A stretch of DNA of 64,000 nucleotides. It comes from an uncultured Actinomycetota bacterium. Lineage in GTDB: Bacteria > Actinomycetota > Humimicrobiia > Humimicrobiales > Humimicrobiaceae. Shown one piece after another: positions 26,074 to 47,725 of this stretch (position 1 is its first letter; each line of letters begins with the position of its first letter). The DNA is taken from contig CAZODQ010000004.1 in the NCBI GenBank assembly GCA_964578625.1, positions 10,389 through 74,388 of the forward strand, given 5' to 3'. The translations under genes were made by a program, and so were the position numbers. The notes under the pieces are model-generated. The model was given only the letters and a program-made list of their open reading frames with translations, searched no databases and was not told the DNA's origin.

Positions 26074-26589
26074 TCAGTTATTTTTTTTTGTCTTTTTGAT
26101 TTTAGCGGAGGGAGCCTTTTTTGTTTTCAGGGCAGGTGGTTTTCTAGGAGTAGATTTACTCTTTATCGTTTTTTCTTTTACAGCTGGTTTTTTCCTGGTG
26201 GTAGATTTTCCTCTTTTAGCAGGCATCCTTTTGATCTCTTTTTTAGCTGCAGCTTTTTCCTTTGGCCTGGTTTCTTTTACGGGTTCTGATTCCTTTTTTG
26301 TTGAGGTGATTTTTTTTAAAATCTTTGCTGCAGAATCAAGATCTTTTCTATATTGGGTATCATCTGCAGGATTGAAGAATTTTTTTCCTCGGTGATATTT
26401 GGTATCTGTAAAGGTCAATTTTTTAAAATTATTTACATCAATAATAAAATTAGAAGGGAGAGTTTTTAAAAGATTTACGGTACTTGCATGCCAGTTTTTA
26501 AACCTGAGATCCCTGCTGCTTAAATCCATGATTGTTTTTATTTCCTTAAGTCTTTTAAAAATCTTGTCCAAGAGTTCTTTTTCCATCAT
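26074..26589 (-). CDS. histone H1-like lysine-rich protein (N-terminal globular domain plus K/A/P-rich tail)
   Basis: C-terminal 90 aa are KKPAVKEK...PRKPPALKTKKAPSAKIKKTKK. Confidence 0.5.
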   Translation of the reverse strand: MMEKELLDKIFKRLKEIKTIMDLSSRDLRFKNWHASTVNLLKTLPSNFIIDVNNFKKLTFTDTKYHRGKKFFNPADDTQYRKDLDSAAKILKKITSTKKESEPVKETRPKEKAAAKKEIKRMPAKRGKSTTRKKPAVKEKTIKSKSTPRKPPALKTKKAPSAKIKKTKKNN

Positions 26590-27972: not shown

Positions 27973-28413
27973 ATGAAAATTGAAAGTACAGCCTTTAAAA
28001 ACAATGAGTTGATTCCACAAGAATATACCTGTGATGGGAAGAATATAAACCCTCTGCTGTTGATAAGTGATGTGCCTGAAAATGCGAAGAGCCTGGTGCT
28101 TATAGTGGATGACCCTGATGCTTCAGCTGGAACCTGGGTACACTGGACGGTGTGGAATATAGATCCTGAGGTTACAGAAATACCCGAAAACAGCGTACCG
28201 GAAGGATCGGTAGAAGGAGTAACAGATTCCGGCAGGCCCGGATATTCAGGCCCCTGTCCGCCACCGGGAACACACCGCTATTTTTTCAAGCTTTTTGCGC
28301 TGGATACAACCCTGAACCTAAGTCCTTCTATAAGAGCAGTAGATATTGAAAAAGAGATGGAAGCCAGTATTCTTGCAGAGGCACAGTTGGTAGGACTGTA
28401 CAGCCGCCAGTGA
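27973..28413 (+). CDS. YbhB/YbcL family phosphatidylethanolamine-binding protein (PEBP)
   Basis: PPPGTHRYFFKLFALD signature. Confidence 0.8.
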   Translation: MKIESTAFKNNELIPQEYTCDGKNINPLLLISDVPENAKSLVLIVDDPDASAGTWVHWTVWNIDPEVTEIPENSVPEGSVEGVTDSGRPGYSGPCPPPGTHRYFFKLFALDTTLNLSPSIRAVDIEKEMEASILAEAQLVGLYSRQ

Positions 28414-28414
28414 T

Positions 28415-28978
28415 TTATAAATTTATATACTTTTTAACCAGATCAATAATCTTAGGAATCTTTTGTTTTATTCTGCCGGTTAATTTCATGGAAAAGGTAA
28501 GACCGTCATCCATACTGCCGGATATATCAATTCCAATTAAATATCCACTGATTTTTATCCTATATGCAAGATAAAATAAATTCAGGACATCAACAAGAGA
28601 GGTTTGATGAAATGAGATAAAGTCCCTGCCGGGATATTCTAAACCACCTGTATTATAAAAATCATCCAGGGGTATAACAAAAAGGTTTCCATTAGAAGAA
28701 GTATTTTTTTCCTTTTTATTGGAAGAAGTTCCTGTAGAAGTGTCTCCGGTTTTTACGGCATCTATTATTATAAATCTGCTGTTTCTATATGCTTCGAATA
28801 TAGAGAATAGTCTGAACCCCGCGGTTGAACCGTCTATCAGTATTACTTCAGGGGGAAGTTTTTCTTTTTGGAGTCTTTTTATGGTATGCACTCCGATACC
28901 TTCGTCTCCAAGCAAGATATTACCGATGCCCAGTATGACCGTTTTAATATTTTTTGGATTTTCACTATGTTTATCCAC
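28415..28978 (-). CDS. hydrogenase maturation protease (HycI/HoxM/HybD-type endopeptidase) with an S/T/N-rich insertion
   Basis: N-terminus VILGIGNILLGDEGIGVH. Last gene of the hydrogenase operon. Confidence 0.7.
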   Translation of the reverse strand: MDKHSENPKNIKTVILGIGNILLGDEGIGVHTIKRLQKEKLPPEVILIDGSTAGFRLFSIFEAYRNSRFIIIDAVKTGDTSTGTSSNKKEKNTSSNGNLFVIPLDDFYNTGGLEYPGRDFISFHQTSLVDVLNLFYLAYRIKISGYLIGIDISGSMDDGLTFSMKLTGRIKQKIPKIIDLVKKYINL

Positions 28979-29873
28979 TATCTTTGACTACTGCAGGTAT
29001 ATGTTTTTCCCACCCCAGAGCCTGAATATGCACCCCGGCACAATACGGTCTGACTTCTCTTATAAGTTTTGATGCGATCTCTATACACATGGAGACTTTA
29101 TCGGTGGTTCCTTTCATCTTTTTTATTATTGATTCAGGCACAAATACGCCGGGTACGGATTTATTCATATAATCAGCCATTCTTTCTGATTTTAAAAGAA
29201 TTATGCCTGCAAGGATCGGGATATTGATATTTTCCTTATGCATCCTCTCCATGAATCTTTTAAAAACCTCAGCATCATAGATTGCCTGCGTCTGAAAGAA
29301 CTGTGCACCCTGGTCTATTTTTTTCTTCATCTTTATTATCTGAAGCTCATAAGATGCTTCTGTGTCTGCCCCTGGATTTACTACGGCGCCCTTAAAGAAG
29401 GAAGGTTTCCGGGTAAGCTCATTTCCTGAAAGATCATATCCCTCTTCCAATCTTTTAATAGCCCACAGGAGCTGAACCGAATCCAAGTCAAATACAGGTT
29501 CGGCCTGGGGATGGTCGCCAATGGTGGTATAGTCGCCGGTAAGAGCAAGTACATTTCTTATTCCTAAGACACTGGCACTTAAGAGATCTGATTGCAGCGC
29601 CAGCCTGTTTCTATCTCTGCATGTGACCTGGAATATGGGATCCAAACCCATCTGCTTGATCAAATGGCATGTGGTAAGAGAGCCCAGTCTCATTACAGAA
29701 CTCTGAAGATCGGTGACATTTATCCCGTCTGCTACGTCTTTTAAATATTCTGCTGTTTCCTTTACCTCTTCTGCTTCTGCACCTTTGGGAGGGCCGATCT
29801 CACATGTAACTGCGAAATTTCCGCTCCCTAGAATCTTTTCAAGTTTTGATTCTTTAATTGTTTCTATAGTCAT
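28971..29873 (-). CDS. metF: 5,10-methylenetetrahydrofolate reductase MetF
   Basis: MTHFR TIM-barrel signatures (CEIGPPKG, NVLALTGD, DLDSVQLL). Overlaps metV by 4 nt. Confidence 0.8.
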   Translation of the reverse strand: MTIETIKESKLEKILGSGNFAVTCEIGPPKGAEAEEVKETAEYLKDVADGINVTDLQSSVMRLGSLTTCHLIKQMGLDPIFQVTCRDRNRLALQSDLLSASVLGIRNVLALTGDYTTIGDHPQAEPVFDLDSVQLLWAIKRLEEGYDLSGNELTRKPSFFKGAVVNPGADTEASYELQIIKMKKKIDQGAQFFQTQAIYDAEVFKRFMERMHKENINIPILAGIILLKSERMADYMNKSVPGVFVPESIIKKMKGTTDKVSMCIEIASKLIREVRPYCAGVHIQALGWEKHIPAVVKDSG

Positions 29874-30547
29874 ACCGCATCCTCCTCATCGAGTGCCCAT
29901 GATCCGGTTTTTCTTAAGACTGCCTGCGGCAATATTTTTGTATAATCCCTGGGAGGTATAAACTTTTTTAACCTGTCTAAATTTCCTGTCCTTTTCAGGT
30001 TATTATAGATCAATACCCATCCGCAATCTCTTTCCGGATCTGTTTCACATTTGTCATTACTCTGTCCCGCGCATGCTCCGTTTAACAATTTTTTAGGGCA
30101 GGCTGTATAGGGACATATTCCACCGGTATAGTCCAATATGCAGTCACTGCAGGTATCGCATCTTTCAGTACCCTGCCACATTCCGGTTATACCTCCAAAG
30201 GTAGTAGTATTTAAGGCAGGGTGGCAAATTTTATCTATAACTGCTGATACTGCCTGAACTCCAATGCCGCAAGAAAATACAAGAACAGAATCTGAATTTT
30301 TTATTTCGGAAGCCCTTGGTTTTATTCTGGAGCGGATCAGTGCTTTCTGACATAGAAAATCTATTTCCATTATATCGGTAACAATTTTTCCTCCATTTTC
30401 GAATTTTTTCTTAAAATCTGCCAGCACTTCTTTCCCTCCTGTGTCCGCACCTTCCGGACAACCGCCACAGCCTATAATAAAGATTTTTTTCTCACCTTCA
30501 AGTTTTTCAATCAGTTCCTCTAATGGTTTAAATTCTGTTAATATCAT
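29870..30547 (-). CDS. metV: MetV, MTHFR-associated Cys-rich (zinc/FeS) subunit
   Basis: C-terminal domain with CDTCSDC...GGICPYTACPKKLLNGACAGQ, an LNGxCxG motif that matches the MTHFR_C family as recalled from memory. N-terminal CGGCPEG. Confidence 0.7.
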   Translation of the reverse strand: MILTEFKPLEELIEKLEGEKKIFIIGCGGCPEGADTGGKEVLADFKKKFENGGKIVTDIMEIDFLCQKALIRSRIKPRASEIKNSDSVLVFSCGIGVQAVSAVIDKICHPALNTTTFGGITGMWQGTERCDTCSDCILDYTGGICPYTACPKKLLNGACAGQSNDKCETDPERDCGWVLIYNNLKRTGNLDRLKKFIPPRDYTKILPQAVLRKTGSWALDEEDAV

Positions 30548-30577
30548 AAAACCTCCTATAAAATTTTGCTTAAATTA

Positions 30578-32128
30578 TCAGACTACTTTGTATTTACTTA
30601 TTAAATTTTTCTTTGGTGTTACCAAATGTACTGCACAGGCAGTACATGGATCAAAGCTTCTTATGACTCTTAAAATCTCTACAGGACTTTGACTTTCTTT
30701 TACTTTAAGACCGATTAATGCCTGTTCATAAGGGCCGGGTTGTCCTTCTTTGTCCTTTGGAGATGCATTCCATGCAGTAGGAGTGATAACCTGGTAATTT
30801 GAAATCCTGCCGTTTTCTACATTCAACCAGTGCCCCAGAGCTCCTCTGGGTGCTGCACAGAGTCCAATACCTTTTCCAACGGAAGGGGGTTCGTATTCCA
30901 CTGCAGTGGGTTCTCCTATTTTAAGTTCCTGAGCCCACCCTGCCAGCTGATCCGCTATAATATTTGCCGAAAGTACCCTGGCAAGATGCCTTCCTGCTAC
31001 GGAATACATATTAGAAATATTACAACCTATTTCAGACAGTGAGCTGTCGATAATATTTTTAATATACTGGTCTTTCTTTCCAAGGTAAGTTGTAAGAACA
31101 CTTGCCAAAGGTCCGACTTCATAGACCATACTATTGTATCTGGGAGATTTTATCCATGAATATGCTTCTTTTTTGTCCGCTATAGGTTCAGTCTTTCCTT
31201 CACCCGGATACAAGGGTTCGGAATCCCTGTACCAGCTGTGGGTCAAATCTTCTGTTATATTATCTATATTGATCTTGCTGTATTTATCAATATTATTTAC
31301 AAGACCACCGATGAAAAGATTATCATTATAGCTGCCGTTGGATCTGGTTCTGTATGAATCATATGCCAGTAAATTCATGCAACCTTTTCCTATTTCAAGA
31401 TAATCATTGTAAGTTTTAGCTACTGCTATGACATCAGGCAGATAGTAATTTTTGACAAAATCTGCGATCTCTTCCAGTCTCCATATAAATCCGGTTATCC
31501 TATCGGCTGTCAGCTGCTGTGATACCCCGCCGGCTACAATAGCGGCGTCATGGGGCCACTTTCCGCCGAAAAGAGTAGCTGCCTGCTGTGCTTTCCTGTA
31601 AATATCCAGGGCCTTGATATAATGGCCTACAACCGCACTCGTAGTTTTACTGTCAAATTTATAGTCTATTTCATCTCTTGGAAGGAATGGTTTGGAATAT
31701 CCCTGCTGAAGAAAGTACTTCAATTTGTTTAAATCCTGGTTTTTACCTTTGTATTCCAGTACCTGTGCAGGGTCTACGTAATCCAGTCCGCTTAAGATAT
31801 AGAAATGCAGGATGTGGTCTGCGATACTTCTGGTACCAAGGATCAAGTTTCTTAAAAGGATTCCATTTTGGGGGATTTTATCCGTAAGACCTGCACAGTC
31901 ATCAACAGCGCTGACTGATGCTATGGCATGAGGTTCCGGGCATACTCCGCATATCCTCTGGGTAATCATAACCGCGTCTCTGGGATCTCTGCCCTTTAAC
32001 ATTATTTCTATACCCCTGAACATAGTACCGCTTATACTGGCATCTTTTACTTCGCCGTTATCAACCACGGCTTCCACTTTTAGATGGCCCTCTATCCTGG
32101 TTATAGGGTGTATTACAATTTTTTTCAC
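30578..32128 (-). CDS. [NiFe]-hydrogenase large subunit
   Basis: N-terminal RIEGH and RICGVCPEPH. C-terminal DPCTACAVH followed by a 15-aa extension for protease cleavage. Confidence 0.85.
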   Translation of the reverse strand: MKKIVIHPITRIEGHLKVEAVVDNGEVKDASISGTMFRGIEIMLKGRDPRDAVMITQRICGVCPEPHAIASVSAVDDCAGLTDKIPQNGILLRNLILGTRSIADHILHFYILSGLDYVDPAQVLEYKGKNQDLNKLKYFLQQGYSKPFLPRDEIDYKFDSKTTSAVVGHYIKALDIYRKAQQAATLFGGKWPHDAAIVAGGVSQQLTADRITGFIWRLEEIADFVKNYYLPDVIAVAKTYNDYLEIGKGCMNLLAYDSYRTRSNGSYNDNLFIGGLVNNIDKYSKINIDNITEDLTHSWYRDSEPLYPGEGKTEPIADKKEAYSWIKSPRYNSMVYEVGPLASVLTTYLGKKDQYIKNIIDSSLSEIGCNISNMYSVAGRHLARVLSANIIADQLAGWAQELKIGEPTAVEYEPPSVGKGIGLCAAPRGALGHWLNVENGRISNYQVITPTAWNASPKDKEGQPGPYEQALIGLKVKESQSPVEILRVIRSFDPCTACAVHLVTPKKNLISKYKVV

Positions 32129-32148
32129 GATTTCACCTTCCTGTATAA

Positions 32149-33039
32149 TTATTTTTTTTGGATCTTAGACTTCCTCTTATTTGCAGGAACTTCTACATCA
32201 ATTATTTTTTCATAAAAGTCTCCTAAAAAATCAGGGTATTCAGGTGATGTACAGCTACTGCAGGGGGCTCCGCTACCGATTACCCAGTTGGCTTTACTGT
32301 TCCACTGTCTTTTAGGACAGTCAGCATAAGTTATCGGCCCTTTGCACCCCAGTTCGTAAAGGCAGCCCTCATCACCTAACTTTTTGGCAAATTTACCTTC
32401 ATCAAAATAAGCTCTATTGGGGCAATTTTCATGGATAAGCTGCCCGTAAAATGTTTTAGGCCTCCTGAAGTCGTCCAGCTGGACATTTTCCAATCCCTTT
32501 ACAAGTACTTCTTCAATGGTCCCGAAAAGCCAGTCGGGATGGGGAGGACAGCCAGGTACGTTTACAAGAGGTGTTTCAATCTTATTGGTAAGAAAGATAT
32601 CTCCAACACTTTGCGCTCCGGTTGGATTCGGATTTCCGGCAGCAATTCCGCCGAATGCCGCACAGGTCCCCAGAGCTATTACCATGAGTGCATCCGGTGC
32701 AAGTTTTAGGGTTTCTTCCAGTATGGTATATTTTCTACCGTCTTTTTCACCTGTAATACAATAAATTCCGTTGTCGTTGGTAGGAATCGCACCGTCAATA
32801 ATTAAGACATATCCCTTTTCTTTTGCTGCATTTTCAAGTATTTCCATGGCGCGGTTTCCGCTTGCAGTCATGATATTCGGATGGAATATAAAGTCAAGTT
32901 TGAAACCTGGAACTATATCCTGCAGCAGTACATTTTTGATTGCCGGATAATCGGAGCACAGGGTTGATGTGACACAGCCGGTACAGTTTTGGCCCTGGAT
33001 ACTAATAACCGGTATAACAGTACTTTTTCTATTATTCAT
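32149..33039 (-). CDS. [NiFe]-hydrogenase small subunit, cytoplasmic (no Tat signal)
   Basis: VISIQGQNCTGC proximal-cluster motif at residue 10. C-terminal Cys clusters (CPKRQW...CSSCTSPEYP). No RRxF twin-arginine leader. Confidence 0.8.
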   Translation of the reverse strand: MNNRKSTVIPVISIQGQNCTGCVTSTLCSDYPAIKNVLLQDIVPGFKLDFIFHPNIMTASGNRAMEILENAAKEKGYVLIIDGAIPTNDNGIYCITGEKDGRKYTILEETLKLAPDALMVIALGTCAAFGGIAAGNPNPTGAQSVGDIFLTNKIETPLVNVPGCPPHPDWLFGTIEEVLVKGLENVQLDDFRRPKTFYGQLIHENCPNRAYFDEGKFAKKLGDEGCLYELGCKGPITYADCPKRQWNSKANWVIGSGAPCSSCTSPEYPDFLGDFYEKIIDVEVPANKRKSKIQKK

Positions 33040-34139: not shown

Positions 34140-34598
34140 ATGAAGCCTAAGAAGGTAAATAAAAAATATAGATATATCGAGCATCTTTCAGATATAGGAC
34201 TGGAGTTCTACGGAGATACAATAGAGGAATTATTTGAGAATTCAGGTGCGGGTATGTTTTCTATTATATGTGATCTGGAAATGGTAAGGCCTTTGAAAAA
34301 AAGAAGTATAAGAATCAGACGGCAGGATACGGGTTTTGAGGATCTTTTGATTTTGTGGCTTGAGAAATTGATTTACTGGCATGAAGTTGACAATGTCTTA
34401 TTCTCAGCATTTAAAGTAGCCGGTATATATAAAAGGAACGGCAATATAGAGCTATCAGCTGAAGTATCCGGTGAAAAAATAGATCTTAACAGGCATGTTA
34501 TAAAAATAGCTATTAAGGCCCCGACTTACCATATGCTTAAAATAAAAAAAGACGGGAGGCACTGTAATTGGCAAGGCAGGATCATATTTGATGTCTGA
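34140..34598 (+). CDS. archease (RtcB activator)
   Basis: YRYIEHLSDIGLEFYGDTIEELFENSG archease signature. Directly upstream of rtcB. Confidence 0.85.
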   Translation: MKPKKVNKKYRYIEHLSDIGLEFYGDTIEELFENSGAGMFSIICDLEMVRPLKKRSIRIRRQDTGFEDLLILWLEKLIYWHEVDNVLFSAFKVAGIYKRNGNIELSAEVSGEKIDLNRHVIKIAIKAPTYHMLKIKKDGRHCNWQGRIIFDV

Positions 34599-34684
34599 GA
34601 AGAGAGGAGTTTATTATTTCAGATTACAATATTAAAAAATTAAATGATTATAAGTGGGAAGTAGAGAAGGATGACAGGTATGGA

Positions 34685-36067
34685 ATGAGAGTACCTGGAA
34701 TAATCTTTGCTGACAGGGAACTTTTGGATCATGCCGTAGGTGAAAAGACCATTGACCAGGTAGTAAACGTTTCGACTCTGCCTGGCATACTTAAAGCTTC
34801 GTATGCTATGCCGGATATTCATTACGGATACGGGTTTCCTATAGGAGGAGTTGCTGCTTTCAGTGAGGAAGATGGAGTAATTTCACCCGGCGGTGTTGGT
34901 TTTGATATATCCTGTGGGGTAAGGATTGTGAGGACTGGTCTATATATCAGTGATATTGAGAAGCATCTAGAGGATATAATGGGTATTTTATCCTTCAACA
35001 TACCAAAAGGACTGGGAACAAAGGGCAGGATCAGCCTGTCCAGGGACCAATTGAAGAAATTACTGAAAGAAGGTGTCCGATGGGCTATTGGGAATGGTTA
35101 CGGCCGGGAGGGAGATGATTACTGTATAGAAGAAAACGGCTGTATGGAAGGAGCCAATCCTGACTTTATAAGCAACCATGCCATAGAAAGAGGTATAAAA
35201 CAGGTGGGAACTCTTGGATCCGGGAACCATTTTTTAGAGATACAGGTTGTGGATGAAATATATGACAGCAAAGCAGCGGACCTGTTTGGTCTGGAAAAGG
35301 ATCAAATAACAGTGATGATCCATTCTGGTTCCAGAGGACTTGGCCATCAGATATGTAGTGATTATATTAAGGTAATGCAGCAGTCTACTTTAAAGTACGG
35401 GATAAAATTGGCAGACCGTCAGCTTGCCTGTGCACCTTTATCTTCCCCCGAGGGGAGAAGATACTATAGTGCTATGGCCTGTGCCGTAAATTATGCCATG
35501 ACAAACAGGCACTGCCTTTTCCATTGGGTAAGGACATCTTTTGAAAGATTTTTCGGCAAATCTTCAGAGAAATTAGGTCTCAGTGTTATTTATGATGTAT
35601 CCCATAATATAGCCAAGATGGAAGAGCATAATGTTAACGGCAAGATGATAAAAGTCTGCGTTCATAGAAAGGGTGCTACACGGTCTTATCCTCCGGGTCA
35701 TAAGGATATTTGTAAAAAATATAAAGACATCGGTCAGCCGGTAATAATCCCGGGAGATATGGGCCGTTATTCATTTATTCTGCTGGGAACAGAGAAAGCG
35801 ATGAGTGAAAGCTTCGGCTCTACCTGCCATGGCGCAGGAAGACTTATGAGCAGGACAAAAGCTAAGAAAATAATACAGGGAAGCGAACTTAAAAAGGAGC
35901 TTTTTGATAAGAAAGGAATAGTAGTAATAGCCGGGAGTATGTCCGGACTTGCAGAAGAAGCTCCTCAGGCCTATAAAGATGTAAGCAGGGTAGTCGATAT
36001 AACTCACTTTGCAGGGATATCTAAAAAAGCAGTAAGGCTGAGGCCGCTTGGAGTCCTTAAGGGATAA
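34685..36067 (+). CDS. rtcB: RNA-splicing ligase RtcB (coordinates from first ATG; N-terminus probably extends upstream, see findings)
   Basis: GSGNHF, Cys/His metal ligands, CHGAGR, and C-terminal AYKD..VV. Confidence 0.85.
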   Translation: MRVPGIIFADRELLDHAVGEKTIDQVVNVSTLPGILKASYAMPDIHYGYGFPIGGVAAFSEEDGVISPGGVGFDISCGVRIVRTGLYISDIEKHLEDIMGILSFNIPKGLGTKGRISLSRDQLKKLLKEGVRWAIGNGYGREGDDYCIEENGCMEGANPDFISNHAIERGIKQVGTLGSGNHFLEIQVVDEIYDSKAADLFGLEKDQITVMIHSGSRGLGHQICSDYIKVMQQSTLKYGIKLADRQLACAPLSSPEGRRYYSAMACAVNYAMTNRHCLFHWVRTSFERFFGKSSEKLGLSVIYDVSHNIAKMEEHNVNGKMIKVCVHRKGATRSYPPGHKDICKKYKDIGQPVIIPGDMGRYSFILLGTEKAMSESFGSTCHGAGRLMSRTKAKKIIQGSELKKELFDKKGIVVIAGSMSGLAEEAPQAYKDVSRVVDITHFAGISKKAVRLRPLGVLKG

Positions 36068-42130: not shown

Positions 42131-42481
42131 TATGCCAGATTTATTGCCCTAAGTTTTAATATTTTTAATGTTGCAGAGCCTTTTGCCTATTTTACAGAAG
42201 AAGTTTTTTTGATTTCCACCAGCCTACTGAAAGTACTATAACTATTATATTTATTTTACTGCAACTTAACAAATTTACGCTGTATTGGCCAGATTCATTA
42301 AAAAATGCGGTTATTTTTGGAAAATTTATACCTTATTTTTAAAATATTGGAAATTTTTATTATAAATATCATATTTTTTATAAAAAGTGATATAATGACA
42401 ACGAAAATTTTAAAAATCGTACTTTTTTAATTATTTTTTACGAATATGGTGTATATTTGTAATTTTTAAGGAGTGATATTA

Positions 42482-43714
42482 GTGAGAGAATTAGATTTGC
42501 TTACCGAATTTTCGCAGAAAGCAGGCACAAAATTAGATCCAAAGAACATAAAAATTGACGATACTACCTTAAGAGACGGGGAACAGACTGCCGGTGTAGT
42601 GTTTGCGAATGATGAAAAAGTATATATTGCAAAAATGCTGGATAAAATAGGAGTACACCAGATTGAAGCTGGAATACCCGCAATGGGGGGAGATGAAAAG
42701 GAAGCAATTAAGAGGATCGCATCACTTGGTCTTAACTGCAGTGTGCTGGGCTGGAACAGAGCGGTAAAATCAGATGTTGATGCTTCAATCGAGTGCGGGG
42801 TTGATGCAGTAGCTATTTCAATATCATCTTCCGATATACATATTGAACATAAGCTTATGAAGAGTAGAGAATGGGTTCTGGAAAGTGTTAAGACCTGCGT
42901 GGATTATGCCAAGGGGTTTAATCTCTATGTATCGGTAAATGCTGAAGATGCTTCAAGGTCTGATATGGAATTTCTTCTCCAGTTTGCCAGAACGGCAAGA
43001 GATACCGGTGCGGACAGGTTGAGGTATTGCGATACACTGGGCATCCTTGATCCTTTTGAGACTTTTATAAGGGTTAAAAATATTATTAATATAATCGGAA
43101 TAGATGTTGAGATGCATACGCATAATGATTTTGGAATGGCTATTGCCAACGCCATAGCAGGGATCAAAGCAGGAGCAACTCATGTCAATACAACTATTAA
43201 TGGTCTGGGTGAGAGAGCAGGCAATGCTGCATTTGAAGAACTGGTCATGGCTTTAAAATATATTGAGGGAGTGGATATGGGATTTAATACCACTCTTTTC
43301 CGAACACTGTCCGAATATGTAGCAAAGGCTTCCAACAGGATTATCCCTACTTGGAAGCCGATAGTAGGGGGAAAACTGTTTGTTTATGAAAGTGAAAGTA
43401 AAGTCTCGGGCATACTGTCAGATACTGAGACATACGAGTTATTTAACGAAAAGGATGTAGGCCTGGAAAGAAATGTGATACTGGGAAAATATTCAGGAGT
43501 GAATACCATAATCTATAAACTTGATACGCTGGGTTTTAAAGTCAGTCATAAAGAGGCAGAAGAACTGGCTGAAATAATAAGAGATAAAACGGTATCTCTT
43601 AAAAGAGCTCTTTTTGATAGTGAAATTATTGATGTCTATAAGTCTTATAAAAACAGGTCATCCAGGAGCAGAGCAAGTAAAAAGGGAGGAAAAAATGGAA
43701 GCGGCAGAAAATAA
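42482..43714 (+). CDS. homocitrate synthase / (R)-citramalate / Re-citrate synthase family (HMGL-like, LeuA-NifV clade), paralog 1
   Basis: TTLRDGEQ and HTHNDFGMA motifs. No LeuA regulatory domain. Basic C-terminal tail SRSRASKKGGKNGSGRK. GTG start 8 nt after AAGGAG. Confidence 0.75.
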   Translation: MRELDLLTEFSQKAGTKLDPKNIKIDDTTLRDGEQTAGVVFANDEKVYIAKMLDKIGVHQIEAGIPAMGGDEKEAIKRIASLGLNCSVLGWNRAVKSDVDASIECGVDAVAISISSSDIHIEHKLMKSREWVLESVKTCVDYAKGFNLYVSVNAEDASRSDMEFLLQFARTARDTGADRLRYCDTLGILDPFETFIRVKNIINIIGIDVEMHTHNDFGMAIANAIAGIKAGATHVNTTINGLGERAGNAAFEELVMALKYIEGVDMGFNTTLFRTLSEYVAKASNRIIPTWKPIVGGKLFVYESESKVSGILSDTETYELFNEKDVGLERNVILGKYSGVNTIIYKLDTLGFKVSHKEAEELAEIIRDKTVSLKRALFDSEIIDVYKSYKNRSSRSRASKKGGKNGSGRK

Positions 43715-44849
43715 AAGATATGTAAATATTATAGATACGACTCTAAGAAATGGTGAACAGACTGCAGGAGTAGTTTTTTCCAAACATGAAAAAATCAGAA
43801 TAGTTAAAATGCTGGACGAGATTGGTATTCCGGAGGTTGAAGTGGGCACTCCTTCTTTAGGTATTGTAGAAAGAGAGATAATAAGCGAAGTTATGAAGGA
43901 GGAGTTTAACTGCAGGATATTTGCTTACTGCGAAGCCGAACCGGAGAATATAAAATATGCTGCCCAGTGCGGAGTTAAAAATGTAATTATAAATATTTCC
44001 ACTTCTGACATACATATAAGGGAAAAATATAAGAAAAACAGGACATGGGTTATAAATAAATTGAGGGAGACTATAAAAGCTGCTAAAAAGAATGGTATTA
44101 GTTTTATTATAAGTGCAGAGGATGCCACACGTACTGATCTTGAGTTTCTATTAAGGATTATTTCCATTGCCAGAAAAAAAGGTGCATACAGGTTTAGAAT
44201 CTGTGATACTGTAAGCAAACTTGACCCATTCAGGACCTTTTTGCTTATAAACACCATATCAAGCGCTGTGGATTTTCCGCTGGAAGTCTACAATCATAAT
44301 GATTTTGGCATGGCAACTGCTAATGGAATGGCAGCTGTAAGAGGAGGTGCCTCAAGTCTTGTAGTCAGTGTAGGCGGATTGGGGGAAGGCACAGGTAATG
44401 CAGCAATGGAAGAGATCATAATGGCGCTGAAATATCTAGAGAATATAGAACTGGGAATAAAAACTTCAAAGTTCAGGGAAATAGCTGAATATGTGTCCAG
44501 AGCTTCGGCCAGAGCCATCCCTGTCTGGAAAGCAATTGTAGGAACAAATATATTTGCTCATGAATCGGGAATACATGCAGATGGTGTTATCAAAAATCCA
44601 AAAAACTATGAAGTGTTTAATCCCGGTGAGGTAGGATTGACAAGGCAGCTGGTTGTAGGCAAACATTCCGGTTCACATACCATACTGCACAAGTTTAAGG
44701 AGTTTGATATAGAACTAACAGACAAACAGGCAAATGATATACTCAGCATGGCGAGAGCCATGTCAGTAGACCAAAAAAGGCCGCTTTTTGATAAAGAACT
44801 TATGTATATTTATAATGAATATAATAAAAAGAAGAAAAAACAGGATTAA
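43695..44849 (+). CDS. homocitrate synthase / citramalate / Re-citrate synthase family, paralog 2
   Basis: TTLRNGEQ and NHNDFGMA motifs. ATG after AGGGAGGA. Confidence 0.75.
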   Translation: MEAAENKRYVNIIDTTLRNGEQTAGVVFSKHEKIRIVKMLDEIGIPEVEVGTPSLGIVEREIISEVMKEEFNCRIFAYCEAEPENIKYAAQCGVKNVIINISTSDIHIREKYKKNRTWVINKLRETIKAAKKNGISFIISAEDATRTDLEFLLRIISIARKKGAYRFRICDTVSKLDPFRTFLLINTISSAVDFPLEVYNHNDFGMATANGMAAVRGGASSLVVSVGGLGEGTGNAAMEEIIMALKYLENIELGIKTSKFREIAEYVSRASARAIPVWKAIVGTNIFAHESGIHADGVIKNPKNYEVFNPGEVGLTRQLVVGKHSGSHTILHKFKEFDIELTDKQANDILSMARAMSVDQKRPLFDKELMYIYNEYNKKKKKQD

Positions 44850-44859
44850 AGGAGTTTTT

Positions 44860-46116
44860 TTGGGAAAGACGATTTCTGAGAAGATTATAAGCGAGCACTC
44901 TGGTAAAGAACTGAGTGCAGGAGATATTGCAGTTGTGGATGTGGATGTGGTTATGTCCCATGACGGTACCGGGCCCCTGGCAGTCAGTCAGGCTGAAAAA
45001 ATGGGTTTCGGAGGTGTAAAGAATCCTGATAAGTCCATTTTTTTTATAGACCATGCCGCACCAAGCCCAAGAAAAGAACTTTCAAACGCACATATAGTTT
45101 TAAAGGATTTTGCGGCTCTGACAGGAGCAGTATTAAAAGGTATCGGAGAGGGCATTTGCCACCAGATACTGGTGGAGTCATACGCCTGCCCGGGTGATAT
45201 AGTAATAGGGGCAGATTCGCATACCTGCACTCCGGGTGCTCTTGGAGCTTTTTCTACCGGAATGGGCTCTACGGATATCGCGGTAGGTTATGTACTGGCT
45301 AAAACCTGGCTCATGGTTCCTCATACGATTAAAGTGAATTTTAATAGAAAGATCAATAAAGGAGTATTTGCCAAAGATTTAATTATTTATTTAATTGGAA
45401 GAATCACTTCTGATGGAGCAACTTACAAGGCTCTTGAATTCGGCGGTGAGGTTGGAGCCAGGCTGGGCATGGATGATAGATTCACTATTTCAAATATGGC
45501 AGTGGAAGCAGGAGCAAAAGCAGGTATTTTCCCTTCTGATGAGATTACAAGAAAATATCTGGAAAACCAGGGAAGAAAAAATTGCTTCAGGGAAATATCA
45601 GCGGATAAAGGAGCAAAATATGAAAAGATCTTAGATATTGACTGTTCTGTTATTGAGCCAATGGTTTCACAACCTCATACTGTGGATAATGCTTTACCTG
45701 TAAGCAGCCTGGAAAAAGTTATGATTGACCAGGTATTTATAGGGACCTGTACCAACGGCAGGTTCAGCGATTTAAAGATTGCAGCAGATATTCTTAAGGA
45801 TAGGAAAGTGGCAGAGGGTGTAAGACTCATTGTAGTCCCGGCTTCGAAAAGTACGTACCTTGAAGCTCTTGAAAAAGGAGTTATAAAAACATTTATAGAC
45901 AGCGGGGCGGTAATACAATCCCCGGGATGCGGTCCATGTGTAGGTGTCCACCAGGGAGTACTTGGTGATGGAGAGGTATGCCTTTCGACTCAGAACAGGA
46001 ATTTTAAAGGGAGAATGGGAAACCCGAATTCTTTCATTTACCTTTCTTCTCCCGCAACGGCCGCATGGAGTGCAGTCAAAGGTTATATTGCAGATCCAAG
46101 GGAGGTTTTAGGATAA
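44860..46116 (+). CDS. aconitase-family dehydratase large subunit (LeuC/HacA-type)
   Basis: TTG start after AAAGGAG gives LGKTISEKIISEHSG, the canonical LeuC N-terminus. Cys ligands CTNGRFSD and SPGCGPCVG. Confidence 0.8.
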   Translation: MGKTISEKIISEHSGKELSAGDIAVVDVDVVMSHDGTGPLAVSQAEKMGFGGVKNPDKSIFFIDHAAPSPRKELSNAHIVLKDFAALTGAVLKGIGEGICHQILVESYACPGDIVIGADSHTCTPGALGAFSTGMGSTDIAVGYVLAKTWLMVPHTIKVNFNRKINKGVFAKDLIIYLIGRITSDGATYKALEFGGEVGARLGMDDRFTISNMAVEAGAKAGIFPSDEITRKYLENQGRKNCFREISADKGAKYEKILDIDCSVIEPMVSQPHTVDNALPVSSLEKVMIDQVFIGTCTNGRFSDLKIAADILKDRKVAEGVRLIVVPASKSTYLEALEKGVIKTFIDSGAVIQSPGCGPCVGVHQGVLGDGEVCLSTQNRNFKGRMGNPNSFIYLSSPATAAWSAVKGYIADPREVLG

Positions 46117-46637
46117 TGTCCGGCAAAAAAAATATATCTAAAGTTCTAGTCGGAAAAAGTTTTAAATTCGGCGATGATATTTCAACTGATTTGATTATCC
46201 CGGGAAGATATTTTCACTTAAGGTCTGATATGCAGAAGCTTGCAGAACATGTTCTTGAAGACGCCGACCCGGATTTTGCAGGGAAAGTAAAACCCGGAGA
46301 TTTTGTGGTGGGGGGCAAAAATTTCGGCCTTGGCTCAAGCAGAGAACATGCACCGGCGGTATTAAAGATAGCCGGTGCAGGAGCAGTACTTGCCAAGTCC
46401 TTTGCCCGCATATTCTTCAGAAACAGTATCAATATAGGATTGCCTGTGATGATCTGTGATACCGATAAGATCGAAAGCGGGGATATACTGGAGATAGATT
46501 TTAAAAAAGGGATAATCAACAACAGGACGGGCAATTTGAAGTTGGAATTCAATCCTCTGCCGGAAGTAATGATAAAGATATTAAATGACGGCGGGCTTAT
46601 TAACCACATTATAAAAAATAAAGGTTTCAATCTATGA
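46116..46637 (+). CDS. aconitase-family dehydratase small subunit (LeuD/HacB-type)
   Basis: MSGKK..FGDDISTDLIIPGRYF swivel domain. ATG overlaps the stop of the large subunit. Confidence 0.8.
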   Translation: MSGKKNISKVLVGKSFKFGDDISTDLIIPGRYFHLRSDMQKLAEHVLEDADPDFAGKVKPGDFVVGGKNFGLGSSREHAPAVLKIAGAGAVLAKSFARIFFRNSINIGLPVMICDTDKIESGDILEIDFKKGIINNRTGNLKLEFNPLPEVMIKILNDGGLINHIIKNKGFNL

Positions 46638-47725
46638 AGCATACGATAACTCTGATACCCGGGGACGGCATAGGACCGGAAATAACCAGGGCAATGGTTA
46701 AAGTCGTTGAGGCAACTGGAATAGATATCAAATGGGATACGGTCAATGCCGGGGCAGAGGTTTATAAGCAAGAAGGTACGGTTCTTCCGGATAGTGTTAT
46801 AAGTTCACTTAAGAAAAACAAGGTAGGGATAAAAGGTCCTATTACTACACCTGTAGGAACAGGATTTAGAAGTGTTAATGTGGCCATGAGGAAATTATTC
46901 GATCTGTATGCATGTATCAGGCCCTGCAAGAGCTACCCGGGCGTTAAAAGCAGGTACAGTGGTATAGATCTGGTTATAATCAGGGAAAATACTGAAGATC
47001 TTTATGCGGGAGTGGAGTTTAAAAAAGGTGAAGGGGATACAAAAGAGCTTATTGATTTCATTAGAAAAAAGAAGGATCTGGAGATCAGGAGCGATAGCGG
47101 AATAAGCATAAAGCCGATTTCCATGGCCGCTTCGGAAGATATAATCAGGTTTGCCTTTGAATATGCCCGTAAAAATAGCCGGAAAAAAGTTACCGGCGTA
47201 CATAAGGCAAATATAATGAAATATTCCGATGGCCTGTTTCTTGAGGTCTTTAAAAAGATTGCACCGGAATATGATGATATAGAGTCAGAAGATAGGATCG
47301 TGGACAATATGTGTATGCAGCTGGTACAGAAACCTGAGCTCTATGATGTCATAGTTTTACCAAATCTATACGGAGATATAATCTCTGACCTTGCTGCCGG
47401 ATTGGTTGGAGGACTAGGTGTAGCTCCAGGCGGAAATATCGGGAAGGATATTGCATTGTTTGAGCCGACTCACGGCAGTGCTCCGAAGTATAAGGGACAG
47501 AACAGGGTAAATCCGACCGCAATGATGCTTTCAGCTGTCTTAATGCTTAGATATATAGGAGAAAAAAAGCACGCGGAACTTCTTGAAAATGCGGTTGCAG
47601 AAAATATAAGAGAAGGAAAATATGTTACCTATGATTTAAAACCTGACAGAGATGATCCAACAGCTGTTGGAACAGATGAGTTTGCAGATGCAATTGTAGG
47701 AAAAATTGAAAAATCTCGAGCCTGA
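46634..47725 (+). CDS. isocitrate / homoisocitrate / 3-isopropylmalate dehydrogenase family
   Basis: NLYGDIISDLAAGLVGGLGVAPGGNIG signature. Confidence 0.8.
   Translation: MKHTITLIPGDGIGPEITRAMVKVVEATGIDIKWDTVNAGAEVYKQEGTVLPDSVISSLKKNKVGIKGPITTPVGTGFRSVNVAMRKLFDLYACIRPCKSYPGVKSRYSGIDLVIIRENTEDLYAGVEFKKGEGDTKELIDFIRKKKDLEIRSDSGISIKPISMAASEDIIRFAFEYARKNSRKKVTGVHKANIMKYSDGLFLEVFKKIAPEYDDIESEDRIVDNMCMQLVQKPELYDVIVLPNLYGDIISDLAAGLVGGLGVAPGGNIGKDIALFEPTHGSAPKYKGQNRVNPTAMMLSAVLMLRYIGEKKHAELLENAVAENIREGKYVTYDLKPDRDDPTAVGTDEFADAIVGKIEKSRA

Follow-up and report, generated by a model that had tools for sequence, protein, structure and literature searches.

In a 64-kb window of DNA from an uncultured Actinomycetota bacterium (the window being the whole stretch that was analysed), five genes on the minus strand at positions 28415-33039 join a [NiFe]-hydrogenase to MetV and MetF, the two subunits of a methylene-tetrahydrofolate (methylene-THF) reductase (MTHFR). 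We consider it fairly probable that the hydrogenase small and large subunits (HydSL) and MetVF form a soluble cytoplasmic complex acting as an H2:methylene-THF oxidoreductase. The cluster probably lets H2 drive one step of the Wood-Ljungdahl pathway directly. A preliminary description of this DNA had arrived at the same interpretation, and our results supported it as a candidate. The cluster and its putative promoter are as follows.

32149..33039, minus strand: [NiFe]-hydrogenase small subunit (SSU), 296 aa
30578..32128, minus strand: [NiFe]-hydrogenase large subunit (LSU), group 1, 516 aa, GTG start
29870..30547, minus strand: MetV, Cys-rich FeS/Zn subunit of a MetVF-type MTHFR, 225 aa
28971..29873, minus strand: MetF, flavin-containing catalytic subunit of the MTHFR, 300 aa
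28415..28978, minus strand: HyaD/HybD-family hydrogenase maturation endopeptidase, 187 aa
33208..33236, minus strand: candidate sigma-70-type promoter, TTGAAA-17-TAAAAT, from a consensus scan only

Tat loss coincides with linkage to metVF

The SSU was identified by Pfam (PF01058 and PF14720) and by TIGR00391 (235 bits versus a cut-off of 179.5). Its best matches among solved structures were the mature [NiFeSe] small subunits 4kl8_S and 1cc1_S (E 7e-71, from query residue 9). The alignment to mature periplasmic subunits began at residue 9-10 of the SSU, and the precursor chain 2wpn_A aligned from its residue 43. Because only about 8 residues precede the mature-protein alignment, the twin-arginine translocation (Tat) leader is missing from the SSU. 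Consistently, no twin-arginine motif was present in the SSU, even in the longest upstream reading frame, which bears out the earlier statement that the subunit has no Tat leader. There was no membrane helix in the SSU, and the one peak of hydrophobicity falls on the buried GTCA strand around the proximal-cluster Cys. This buried strand may explain why other authors have labelled such small subunits 'membrane-anchored'. From its sequence, the hydrogenase is predicted to be cytoplasmic and soluble.

The ligand sets of three FeS clusters are present in the SSU, with four Cys at the proximal, three Cys at the medial, and His plus three Cys at the distal cluster. These ligands (CTGC...GTCA...GCPP, HENC...GC...GC and C...C..C) align to those of 4kl8_S, 1cc1_S and 3ze6_A. 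The SSU has 'NWV' in place of the [NiFeSe] 'NWC', so that its medial site, like that of standard [NiFe] enzymes, has three Cys.

Relatives were collected by scanning one genome per species with an LSU alignment, which gave 80 loci with 10-kb flanks (numbered L below). These loci were searched by tblastn with the five proteins of the window, and the N-termini of their small subunits were analysed for Tat signals. Both metV and metF were found beside hydSL in 60 of the 62 Tat-less relatives with enough downstream DNA, versus 0 of the 12 relatives with a canonical RRxFLK Tat leader. The two exceptions were a locus with metF only before the contig end and an orphan large subunit. No RRxFxK motif with a hydrophobic region occurred in any metVF-linked locus, the longest upstream frames included. 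The hydSL-metVF arrangement is far beyond chance, and the search for this synteny in other genomes, which the preliminary description had named as a check, was strongly positive.

The linked cluster spans at least ten bacterial phyla. The metagenome-assembled genomes (MAGs) that carry it are labelled Actinomycetota, Chloroflexota (Dehalococcoidia/Anaerolineae), Planctomycetota (Pirellulales/Phycisphaerae), Spirochaetota, Bipolaricaulia, Poribacteria, Aerophobetes, Fraserbacteria and others. The commonest gene orders were SSU-LSU-protease-MetV-MetF (27 loci) and SSU-LSU-MetV-MetF (19 loci), and most loci hold the four structural genes only. The protease-last order of the window is common to the Actinomycetota loci. 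Related Actinomycetota contigs, some of them Candidatus Humimicrobiia in NCBI, agree with the window in gene order over a wider stretch, from RtcB/archease to Ppx-Trk-pyruvate kinase; therefore the cluster is stably inherited in the window's lineage.

The MAGs with the nearest Tat-bearing relatives (L058, L059, L064, L071-L073, L075, L078-L081) carry the labels Desulfuromonadales, Ignavibacteria, Gemmatimonadota and others. Gene order in these relatives is the unusual LSU-(protease)-SSU, and their SSU is about 370-380 aa long where an open reading frame (ORF) was called. One Anaerolineales locus (L016 10001-15391) contains an LSU of the family type with no adjacent SSU or metVF, followed by a complete, distant Tat-bearing group 1 hydrogenase.

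MetV, MetF and co-variation with the hydrogenase

MetV matched PF12225 (MTHFR_C) with E 2.7e-31 over profile positions 2-94 of 95, and the domain on which its identification depended is present. The Cys-rich character and the 'LNGxCxG' motif reported earlier were both recovered; the motif reads LLNGACAG at MetV residues 153-160. Twelve Cys (C27, C30, C66, C93, C130, C133, C136, C145, C150, C159, C167 and C175) are conserved in the hydrogenase-linked set, 11 of them invariant and C93 at 88%. All conserved Cys are also present in MetV copies that do not adjoin a hydrogenase. MetV has been described as a Zn/FeS protein of about 24 kDa. No solved MetV structure was found by a sequence search of the PDB. 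The AlphaFold2 model of MetV was confident for the N-terminal Rossmann-like domain only and poor in the Cys-rich half, and a Foldseek search with this model against the PDB returned only generic binding-protein or Rossmann matches, all with E >1e-3.

The identity of MetF was confirmed by PF02219 (E 1.6e-39 across the full profile). Its best NCBIfam match was the MTHFR half (clostridial-type) of NF006396 (244 bits), and it scored 89 bits with the NAD(P)H-type model TIGR00676, far under the cut-off of 294. These scores suggest that MetF is not of the NAD(P)H-dependent type. The preliminary description named its flavin as FAD, which was an assumption.

Pairwise-distance matrices were compared over the 43 loci having all four proteins. 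SSU and LSU, which are obligate partners, correlated with r 0.89. The SSU-MetV (r 0.84) and LSU-MetV (r 0.79) correlations were followed by MetV-MetF (r 0.69), SSU-MetF (r 0.53) and LSU-MetF (r 0.45). MetF falls into two deep clades, both of which were found adjoining the hydrogenase. Because MetF, the in-operon control, correlates far less, MetV follows the hydrogenase beyond what shared operon or host ancestry would give. The SSU positions that separate linked from Tat-bearing enzymes are E204 (in HENC) and A210, which lie beside the distal-cluster ligands, and the C-terminal tail, where the difference may partly be an alignment-end artefact. Together, the co-variation and the distinguishing residues suggest that the SSU may contact MetV at the electron exit site.

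In some Dehalococcoidia loci (L008 12039-13410, L012 12042-13432 and L029 12059-13436), metV is present twice, the two diverged copies lying in tandem with the protease gene on one side and metF on the other.

Pathway neighbourhood in other phyla

For a neighbour census, ORFs around 63 linked loci were clustered and representatives were annotated. Outside Actinomycetota, the cluster is embedded among Wood-Ljungdahl genes. The neighbours were as follows.

Formate-THF ligase (fhs): 10 loci
FolD, immediately upstream of the SSU: 11 loci
CooC/AcsF-like ATPase: 10 loci
AcsC, 8 loci; AcsE, 8 loci; AcsB, 7 loci; AcsD, 4 loci
FdhA-like molybdoenzyme: 12 loci
NuoF-like, 11 loci; NuoE-like, 9 loci
DUF3786: 6 loci

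HdrA/GltD-like genes were near only 4 of the 63 linked loci. In the window's lineage, the five genes lie by themselves among housekeeping genes. No Wood-Ljungdahl or hyp gene was found in the 64-kb window, where about 30 large ORFs were scanned and proved to be housekeeping, transport or amino-acid biosynthesis genes. The preliminary description had named a check for hyp maturation genes and the rest of the pathway elsewhere in the genome; Wood-Ljungdahl genes were found beside the cluster in other phyla. Merino et al. reported that related deep-branching Actinomycetota carry the Wood-Ljungdahl pathway and, variably, group 1 hydrogenases.

These neighbourhoods bear on whether the genes might simply be co-regulated with no complex being formed. 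In that case HydSL would reduce a diffusible carrier (ferredoxin or flavodoxin), an ordinary ferredoxin-dependent MetVF would use it, and adjacency would follow from the shared role in the Wood-Ljungdahl pathway. MetVF-type enzymes do use reduced ferredoxin in vitro, the hydrogenase-linked MetV has the same Cys motifs as non-linked MetV, and in the larger pathway operons of other phyla co-regulation alone could account for adjacency. However, at the H2 levels of sediments (E(H+/H2) about -266 mV at 1 Pa), reducing ferredoxin with H2 is an uphill reaction. A diffusible carrier also leaves unexplained both the coincidence of Tat loss with metVF and the finding that MetV, not MetF, co-varies with the hydrogenase, and the five Actinomycetota genes stand apart from other pathway genes. 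We regard this alternative as unlikely.

Two side observations concern additional modules at the cluster. An Anaerolineae/Fraserbacteria variant (L009, L018, L019, L021 and L043) has metV upstream of the SSU gene and response-regulator genes downstream; a 627-aa cNMP-binding (cyclic nucleotide-binding) membrane histidine kinase is encoded between the LSU gene and metF (e.g. L021 11627-13510). Sewell et al. described a two-component system flanking metF in marine Chloroflexi. A Dehalococcoidales subgroup (L022, L025 and L053) has genes for an EtfB-like protein, a ferredoxin-fused EtfA-like protein and a 655-aa HdrD-like CCG protein directly upstream of the Tat-less SSU (e.g. L025 2285-4747 and L022 6941-8908), and the HdrD-like gene also occurs in L032. 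This set may be an additional electron module.

The large subunit is a group 1 enzyme with its own maturation protease

The LSU matched PF00374 (E 2.5e-144) in Pfam and NF033181 (615 bits, cut-off 600) in NCBIfam. It carries the Ni-Fe ligand motifs RICGVCPEPH and DPCTACAVH, with C60, C63, C495 and C498 as ligands, all Cys and not selenocysteine (Sec), and a C-terminal extension of 15 residues after His501, the processing His. Among solved structures, the LSU was closest to the Desulfovibrio [NiFe] enzyme 1frf_L (360 bits) and the [NiFeSe] enzyme 5jsu_B (358 bits), followed by E. coli Hyd-2 and Hyd-1. Group 1 chains scored 290-360 bits, versus 208 bits for Huc (group 2a) and about 105-117 bits for Frh/Mvh (groups 3a/3c). 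Because the LSU is closest to group 1 structures and far from groups 2a and 3a/3c, its sequence identifies it as a catalytic group 1 enzyme and not a sensor. The Ni-Fe motifs, the three FeS clusters, and the C-terminal extension with its endopeptidase are all those of group 1; Tat export and a cytochrome partner or membrane anchor are absent. We would file the hydrogenase as a cytoplasmic derivative of group 1 and a new electron-input module for MetVF.

The claim of a hydrogenase C-terminal protease also held. The protein scored 82 bits with TIGR00072 (cut-off 47) and also matched TIGR00140 and NF045519. The motifs GIGNxLxGDEGxG and SFHQ are present in its translation, and the match to Pfam HycI covered only the N-terminal 49 model positions. 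The protease gene is also last in the related Actinomycetota loci. By its family, the protease is predicted to mature the LSU by C-terminal cleavage. At residues ~76-98 it contains a low-complexity insert of about 23 residues rich in Ser/Thr/Asn/Lys (KTGDTSTGTSSNKKEKNTSSNGN), between the conserved Asp and His regions.

A regulatory role was weighed here, in which the hydrogenase would sense H2 and control the expression of metVF and the pathway, and would not feed MetVF. In the census, response regulators occurred in 12 loci, and cNMP-binding histidine kinases recurred in or beside the cluster in Chloroflexota and others. Regulation was one option floated for 'Ca. Syntrophonatronum acetioxidans', and another cytoplasmic hydrogenase, in Syntrophaceticus schinkii, has been called a sensor. 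That S. schinkii enzyme (SSCH_370002-6), which we had tried and rejected as a cultured example of the linkage, is a different, shorter hydrogenase (SSU 254 aa, LSU 437 aa) whose genes are followed by protease, hypA and hypB genes and are not linked to metVF. Sensory group 2b enzymes lack the C-terminal extension and the dedicated endopeptidase, whereas the window LSU has both and resembles group 1, not group 2. No kinase or regulator gene adjoins the window operon or the related Actinomycetota loci. A sensory (group 2b) hydrogenase was rejected on these points, and the sensor explanation as a whole appears extremely improbable.

Proposed electron path and energetics

In the HydSL-MetVF complex that we favour, H2 would be split at the Ni-Fe site of the group 1 HydSL. 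Electrons would pass through the proximal, medial and distal SSU clusters and the metal centres of MetV before reaching the flavin of MetF, where 5,10-methylene-THF would be reduced to 5-methyl-THF. MetV would accept the electrons from the distal SSU cluster, a role that a periplasmic cytochrome plays in ordinary group 1 enzymes, and the product of the fifth gene would mature the LSU. That the four proteins form a complex, that electrons take this path in this direction, and that no bifurcation or energy coupling occurs are inferences.

The folate couple has an E0' of -200 mV. The computed free energy of methylene-THF reduction by H2 is -41 kJ/mol at 1 atm H2, -13 kJ/mol at 1 Pa and about zero near 0.01 Pa. 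Direct coupling would dissipate energy at high H2; at sediment H2 there would be little to conserve, and the step would be kept pulling.

The ~41 kJ/mol that would otherwise be dissipated under standard conditions raises electron bifurcation as an alternative. Here the exergonic reduction of methylene-THF by H2 would pay for the endergonic transfer of electrons from H2 to a low-potential acceptor such as ferredoxin. The bifurcating site would be the MetF flavin or would lie in an unlinked partner, in analogy to MvhADG-HdrABC. Hdr-type MTHFRs are suspected bifurcators in the literature, and in some loci HdrA/GltD-like genes, or EtfAB plus HdrD-like genes, adjoin the cluster. However, neither the window operon with its flanks nor the other Actinomycetota loci have a gene for HdrA, MvhD, a NuoF-like protein or Etf, the four structural genes are all that most loci offer, and little energy is spare at environmental H2. 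MetF is not known to bifurcate, and we consider this alternative very unlikely. If it were true, a minimal bifurcating HydSL-MetVF would supply low-potential reductant for CO2 reduction without Hdr in widespread subsurface bacteria and would assign an energy-coupling role to the MTHFR step.

The vanishing free energy near 0.01 Pa H2 also bears on reverse working. The system would then be a methyl-THF:H+ oxidoreductase that releases H2 during acetate or methyl oxidation via the reversed pathway. This reading has been given for 'Ca. Syntrophonatronum acetioxidans' and 'Ca. Contubernalis alkaliaceticus'. Group 1-type enzymes are in principle reversible, and reverse working would be favoured further if methyl-THF were in large excess over methylene-THF. 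At a 1:1 folate ratio, H2 evolution needs H2 below about 0.01 Pa, which is under the levels that hydrogen consumers usually keep. The fhs, folD, acs and fdh neighbours are direction-neutral, and no gene in the window points to an acetate-oxidising lifestyle. Because it would need extremely low H2 or a high methyl-/methylene-THF ratio, the reverse direction is a minority possibility for this organism, and we hold it to be improbable.

Several points weigh against a HydSL-MetVF complex that reduces methylene-THF with H2. We found no biochemical, structural or transcript support for the complex in any organism. The acceptance of reduced ferredoxin by MetVF enzymes in vitro makes a diffusible carrier possible, and in two papers on syntrophic acetate oxidisers the linkage was taken to serve H2 production. 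In several loci, the cluster has further redox modules or histidine kinases as neighbours. With no Wood-Ljungdahl or hyp genes in the window, the catabolic role here is extrapolated from other phyla and from related Actinomycetota. Finally, a single monophyletic MetVF-linked LSU clade was not recovered by neighbour-joining, and because a Tat-bearing group with the order LSU-protease-SSU nests among the linked LSUs, we make no claim of a single origin.

Relation to known systems and earlier reports

Four classes of acetogen MTHFR are recognised (MetF, MetVF, RnfC2-MetVF and Hdr-MetVF), and none contains a hydrogenase. The MetVF enzymes of Clostridium ljungdahlii and Thermoanaerobacter kivui have the same core of MetF (PF02219), likewise not of the NAD(P)H type, and ~24-kDa MetV (PF12225), with the two genes side by side and coupled in translation. 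Those that have been characterised work without a further partner and accept electrons from reduced ferredoxin in vitro, whereas the metVF of the window is in an operon with hydrogenase and protease genes, and its MetV co-varies with the hydrogenase. In the RnfC2-type MTHFR of Acetobacterium woodii, a gene for an RnfC-like subunit adjoins metVF, and no ORF for such an NADH-binding subunit lies within or adjoining the window operon.

The Hdr-type MTHFR (MetVF-HdrABC-MvhD) of Moorella thermoacetica and Sporomusa ovata shares the MetVF terminal reductase. H2-dependent methylene-THF reduction has been demonstrated with S. ovata membranes, where the chain runs through a periplasmic, Tat-exported cytochrome-b hydrogenase, quinone and Hdr/MvhD and generates a proton gradient. 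In contrast, a Tat leader, cytochrome, quinone-binding subunit, Hdr and MvhD are all missing from the window system, which is predicted to be soluble.

The closest solved structures for both hydrogenase subunits are the periplasmic Desulfovibrio Hyn/Hys enzymes (group 1a/1b [NiFe] and [NiFeSe]). The window enzyme has their Ni-Fe ligands, proximal cluster and His-ligated distal cluster, and predicted C-terminal processing by a HybD-type protease. Unlike them, the window enzyme lacks Tat, has Cys and not Sec, has three medial Cys (not the four of [NiFeSe]), and would have MetV in place of cytochrome c3/b as partner; its distinguishing residues adjoin the distal cluster. A Bipolaricaulia homologue has been assigned to group 1a in HydDB.

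MvhAGD-HdrABC (group 3c) and the hydrogen-dependent CO2 reductase (HDCR) follow the same principle, in which a hydrogenase feeds a pathway enzyme directly without a soluble carrier. HDCR wires a hydrogenase to the first step of the same pathway. The hydrogenase classes differ, Mvh being a group 3c [NiFe] and HDCR an [FeFe] enzyme, and Mvh-Hdr bifurcates via the HdrA flavin. The window LSU scored about 105 bits with Mvh chains versus 360 with group 1.

The nearest precedents are 'Ca. Syntrophonatronum acetioxidans', 'Ca. Contubernalis alkaliaceticus' and Great Salt Lake Bipolaricaulia, in which, going by the authors' descriptions, LSU and SSU alone, with no signal peptide, stand beside MTHFR genes. 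In 'Ca. Syntrophonatronum acetioxidans', Timmers et al. (2018) saw metF surrounded by the genes of a [NiFe] hydrogenase with two subunits and no signal peptide, for which they proposed a role in H2 production or regulation. The same linkage was reported in 2023 for 'Ca. Contubernalis alkaliaceticus', there with NADH-dependent H2 formation as the proposed function, and the authors of the Great Salt Lake Bipolaricaulia paper independently reached an idea similar to ours (electron supply). The three genome papers (2018, 2023 and 2024) thus mention the linkage in single sentences on single genomes, with divergent readings (H2 production, NADH oxidation and electron supply), and the small subunit is called 'membrane-anchored' in these prior mentions. 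A Bipolaricaulia locus with the full cluster is present among our 80 loci (L042).

A full-text literature search found no survey, phylogenetic treatment or biochemistry of the linkage, and it is not described in Merino 2020, Colman 2022, Sewell 2017, Poudel 2018, McDaniel 2023 or the Blue Carbon 2025 paper. The preliminary description had called the arrangement not a textbook one. It does fall outside the four MTHFR classes, but with three prior mentions it is less novel than was implied. As far as we found, what is new is the breadth across phyla, the all-or-none link to Tat loss, the Wood-Ljungdahl neighbourhood and the MetV-hydrogenase co-variation.

If the proposed function is true, HydSL-MetVF would be a fifth MTHFR class and the methyl-branch counterpart of HDCR. 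It would also mean that a lineage of periplasmic respiratory hydrogenases lost export and was taken into the cytoplasm as a module of a carbon-fixation enzyme. The spread of the cluster through sediment and subsurface bacteria could shape the modelling of H2 thresholds, acetogenesis or acetate oxidation in anoxic environments.

Operon layout and surroundings in the window

The genes follow the order SSU, LSU, MetV, MetF and protease, with gaps of 20 nt and 30 nt at the first two junctions and overlaps of 4 nt (metV stop with metF start) and 8 nt at the last two. Shine-Dalgarno motifs lie ahead of the SSU, LSU, MetV and MetF genes, and the cluster contains no additional minus-strand ORF of at least 60 aa. 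The candidate promoter lies within a 211-nt AT-rich gap 5' of the SSU gene, the sole sizeable intergenic gap at the 5' end of the cluster; the promoter-consensus scan was weak, with 24 sites versus 19.6 expected from shuffles.

The five tightly packed minus-strand genes reported earlier, with their overlaps and gaps, were recovered as ORFs at the coordinates listed above, and their families were confirmed by Pfam and NCBIfam. It had also been stated that no HdrA, MvhD, diaphorase or cytochrome b gene intervenes, and none was found in the cluster or its flanks. Genes for hdrA, hdrBC and mvhD were equally absent from the Actinomycetota loci, hdrBC was absent from the window cluster and flanks as well, and no gene for cytochrome b/c3 or another respiratory partner is in or adjoining the operon.

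The flanking genes encode an S-adenosylmethionine (SAM) methyltransferase, a PEBP-family protein and a major facilitator superfamily (MFS) transporter. The GC content of the operon is 0.41 (28001-32000) versus 0.31-0.37 in the immediate flanks. The higher value could stem from a foreign origin or from constraint on conserved metalloenzymes; the GC-richer cluster is nonetheless syntenic in the related Actinomycetota contigs. An archease-RtcB RNA-ligase pair is encoded on the opposite strand at 34140-36067, with the methyltransferase gene between the pair and the operon, and this pair also adjoins the hydrogenase cluster in related contigs (L082-L084).

At 26074-26589 there is a gene for a lysine-rich 171-aa protein with no domain assignment; the only homologues found lie close to the cluster in the Actinomycetota loci L002, L005 and L006. 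Two tandem HMGL-like genes (homocitrate or isopropylmalate synthase-type) are located at 42473-47725, followed by genes for the large and small subunits of an aconitase-family enzyme and for an isocitrate/isopropylmalate dehydrogenase; this gene set is a compact 2-oxoacid chain-elongation module.

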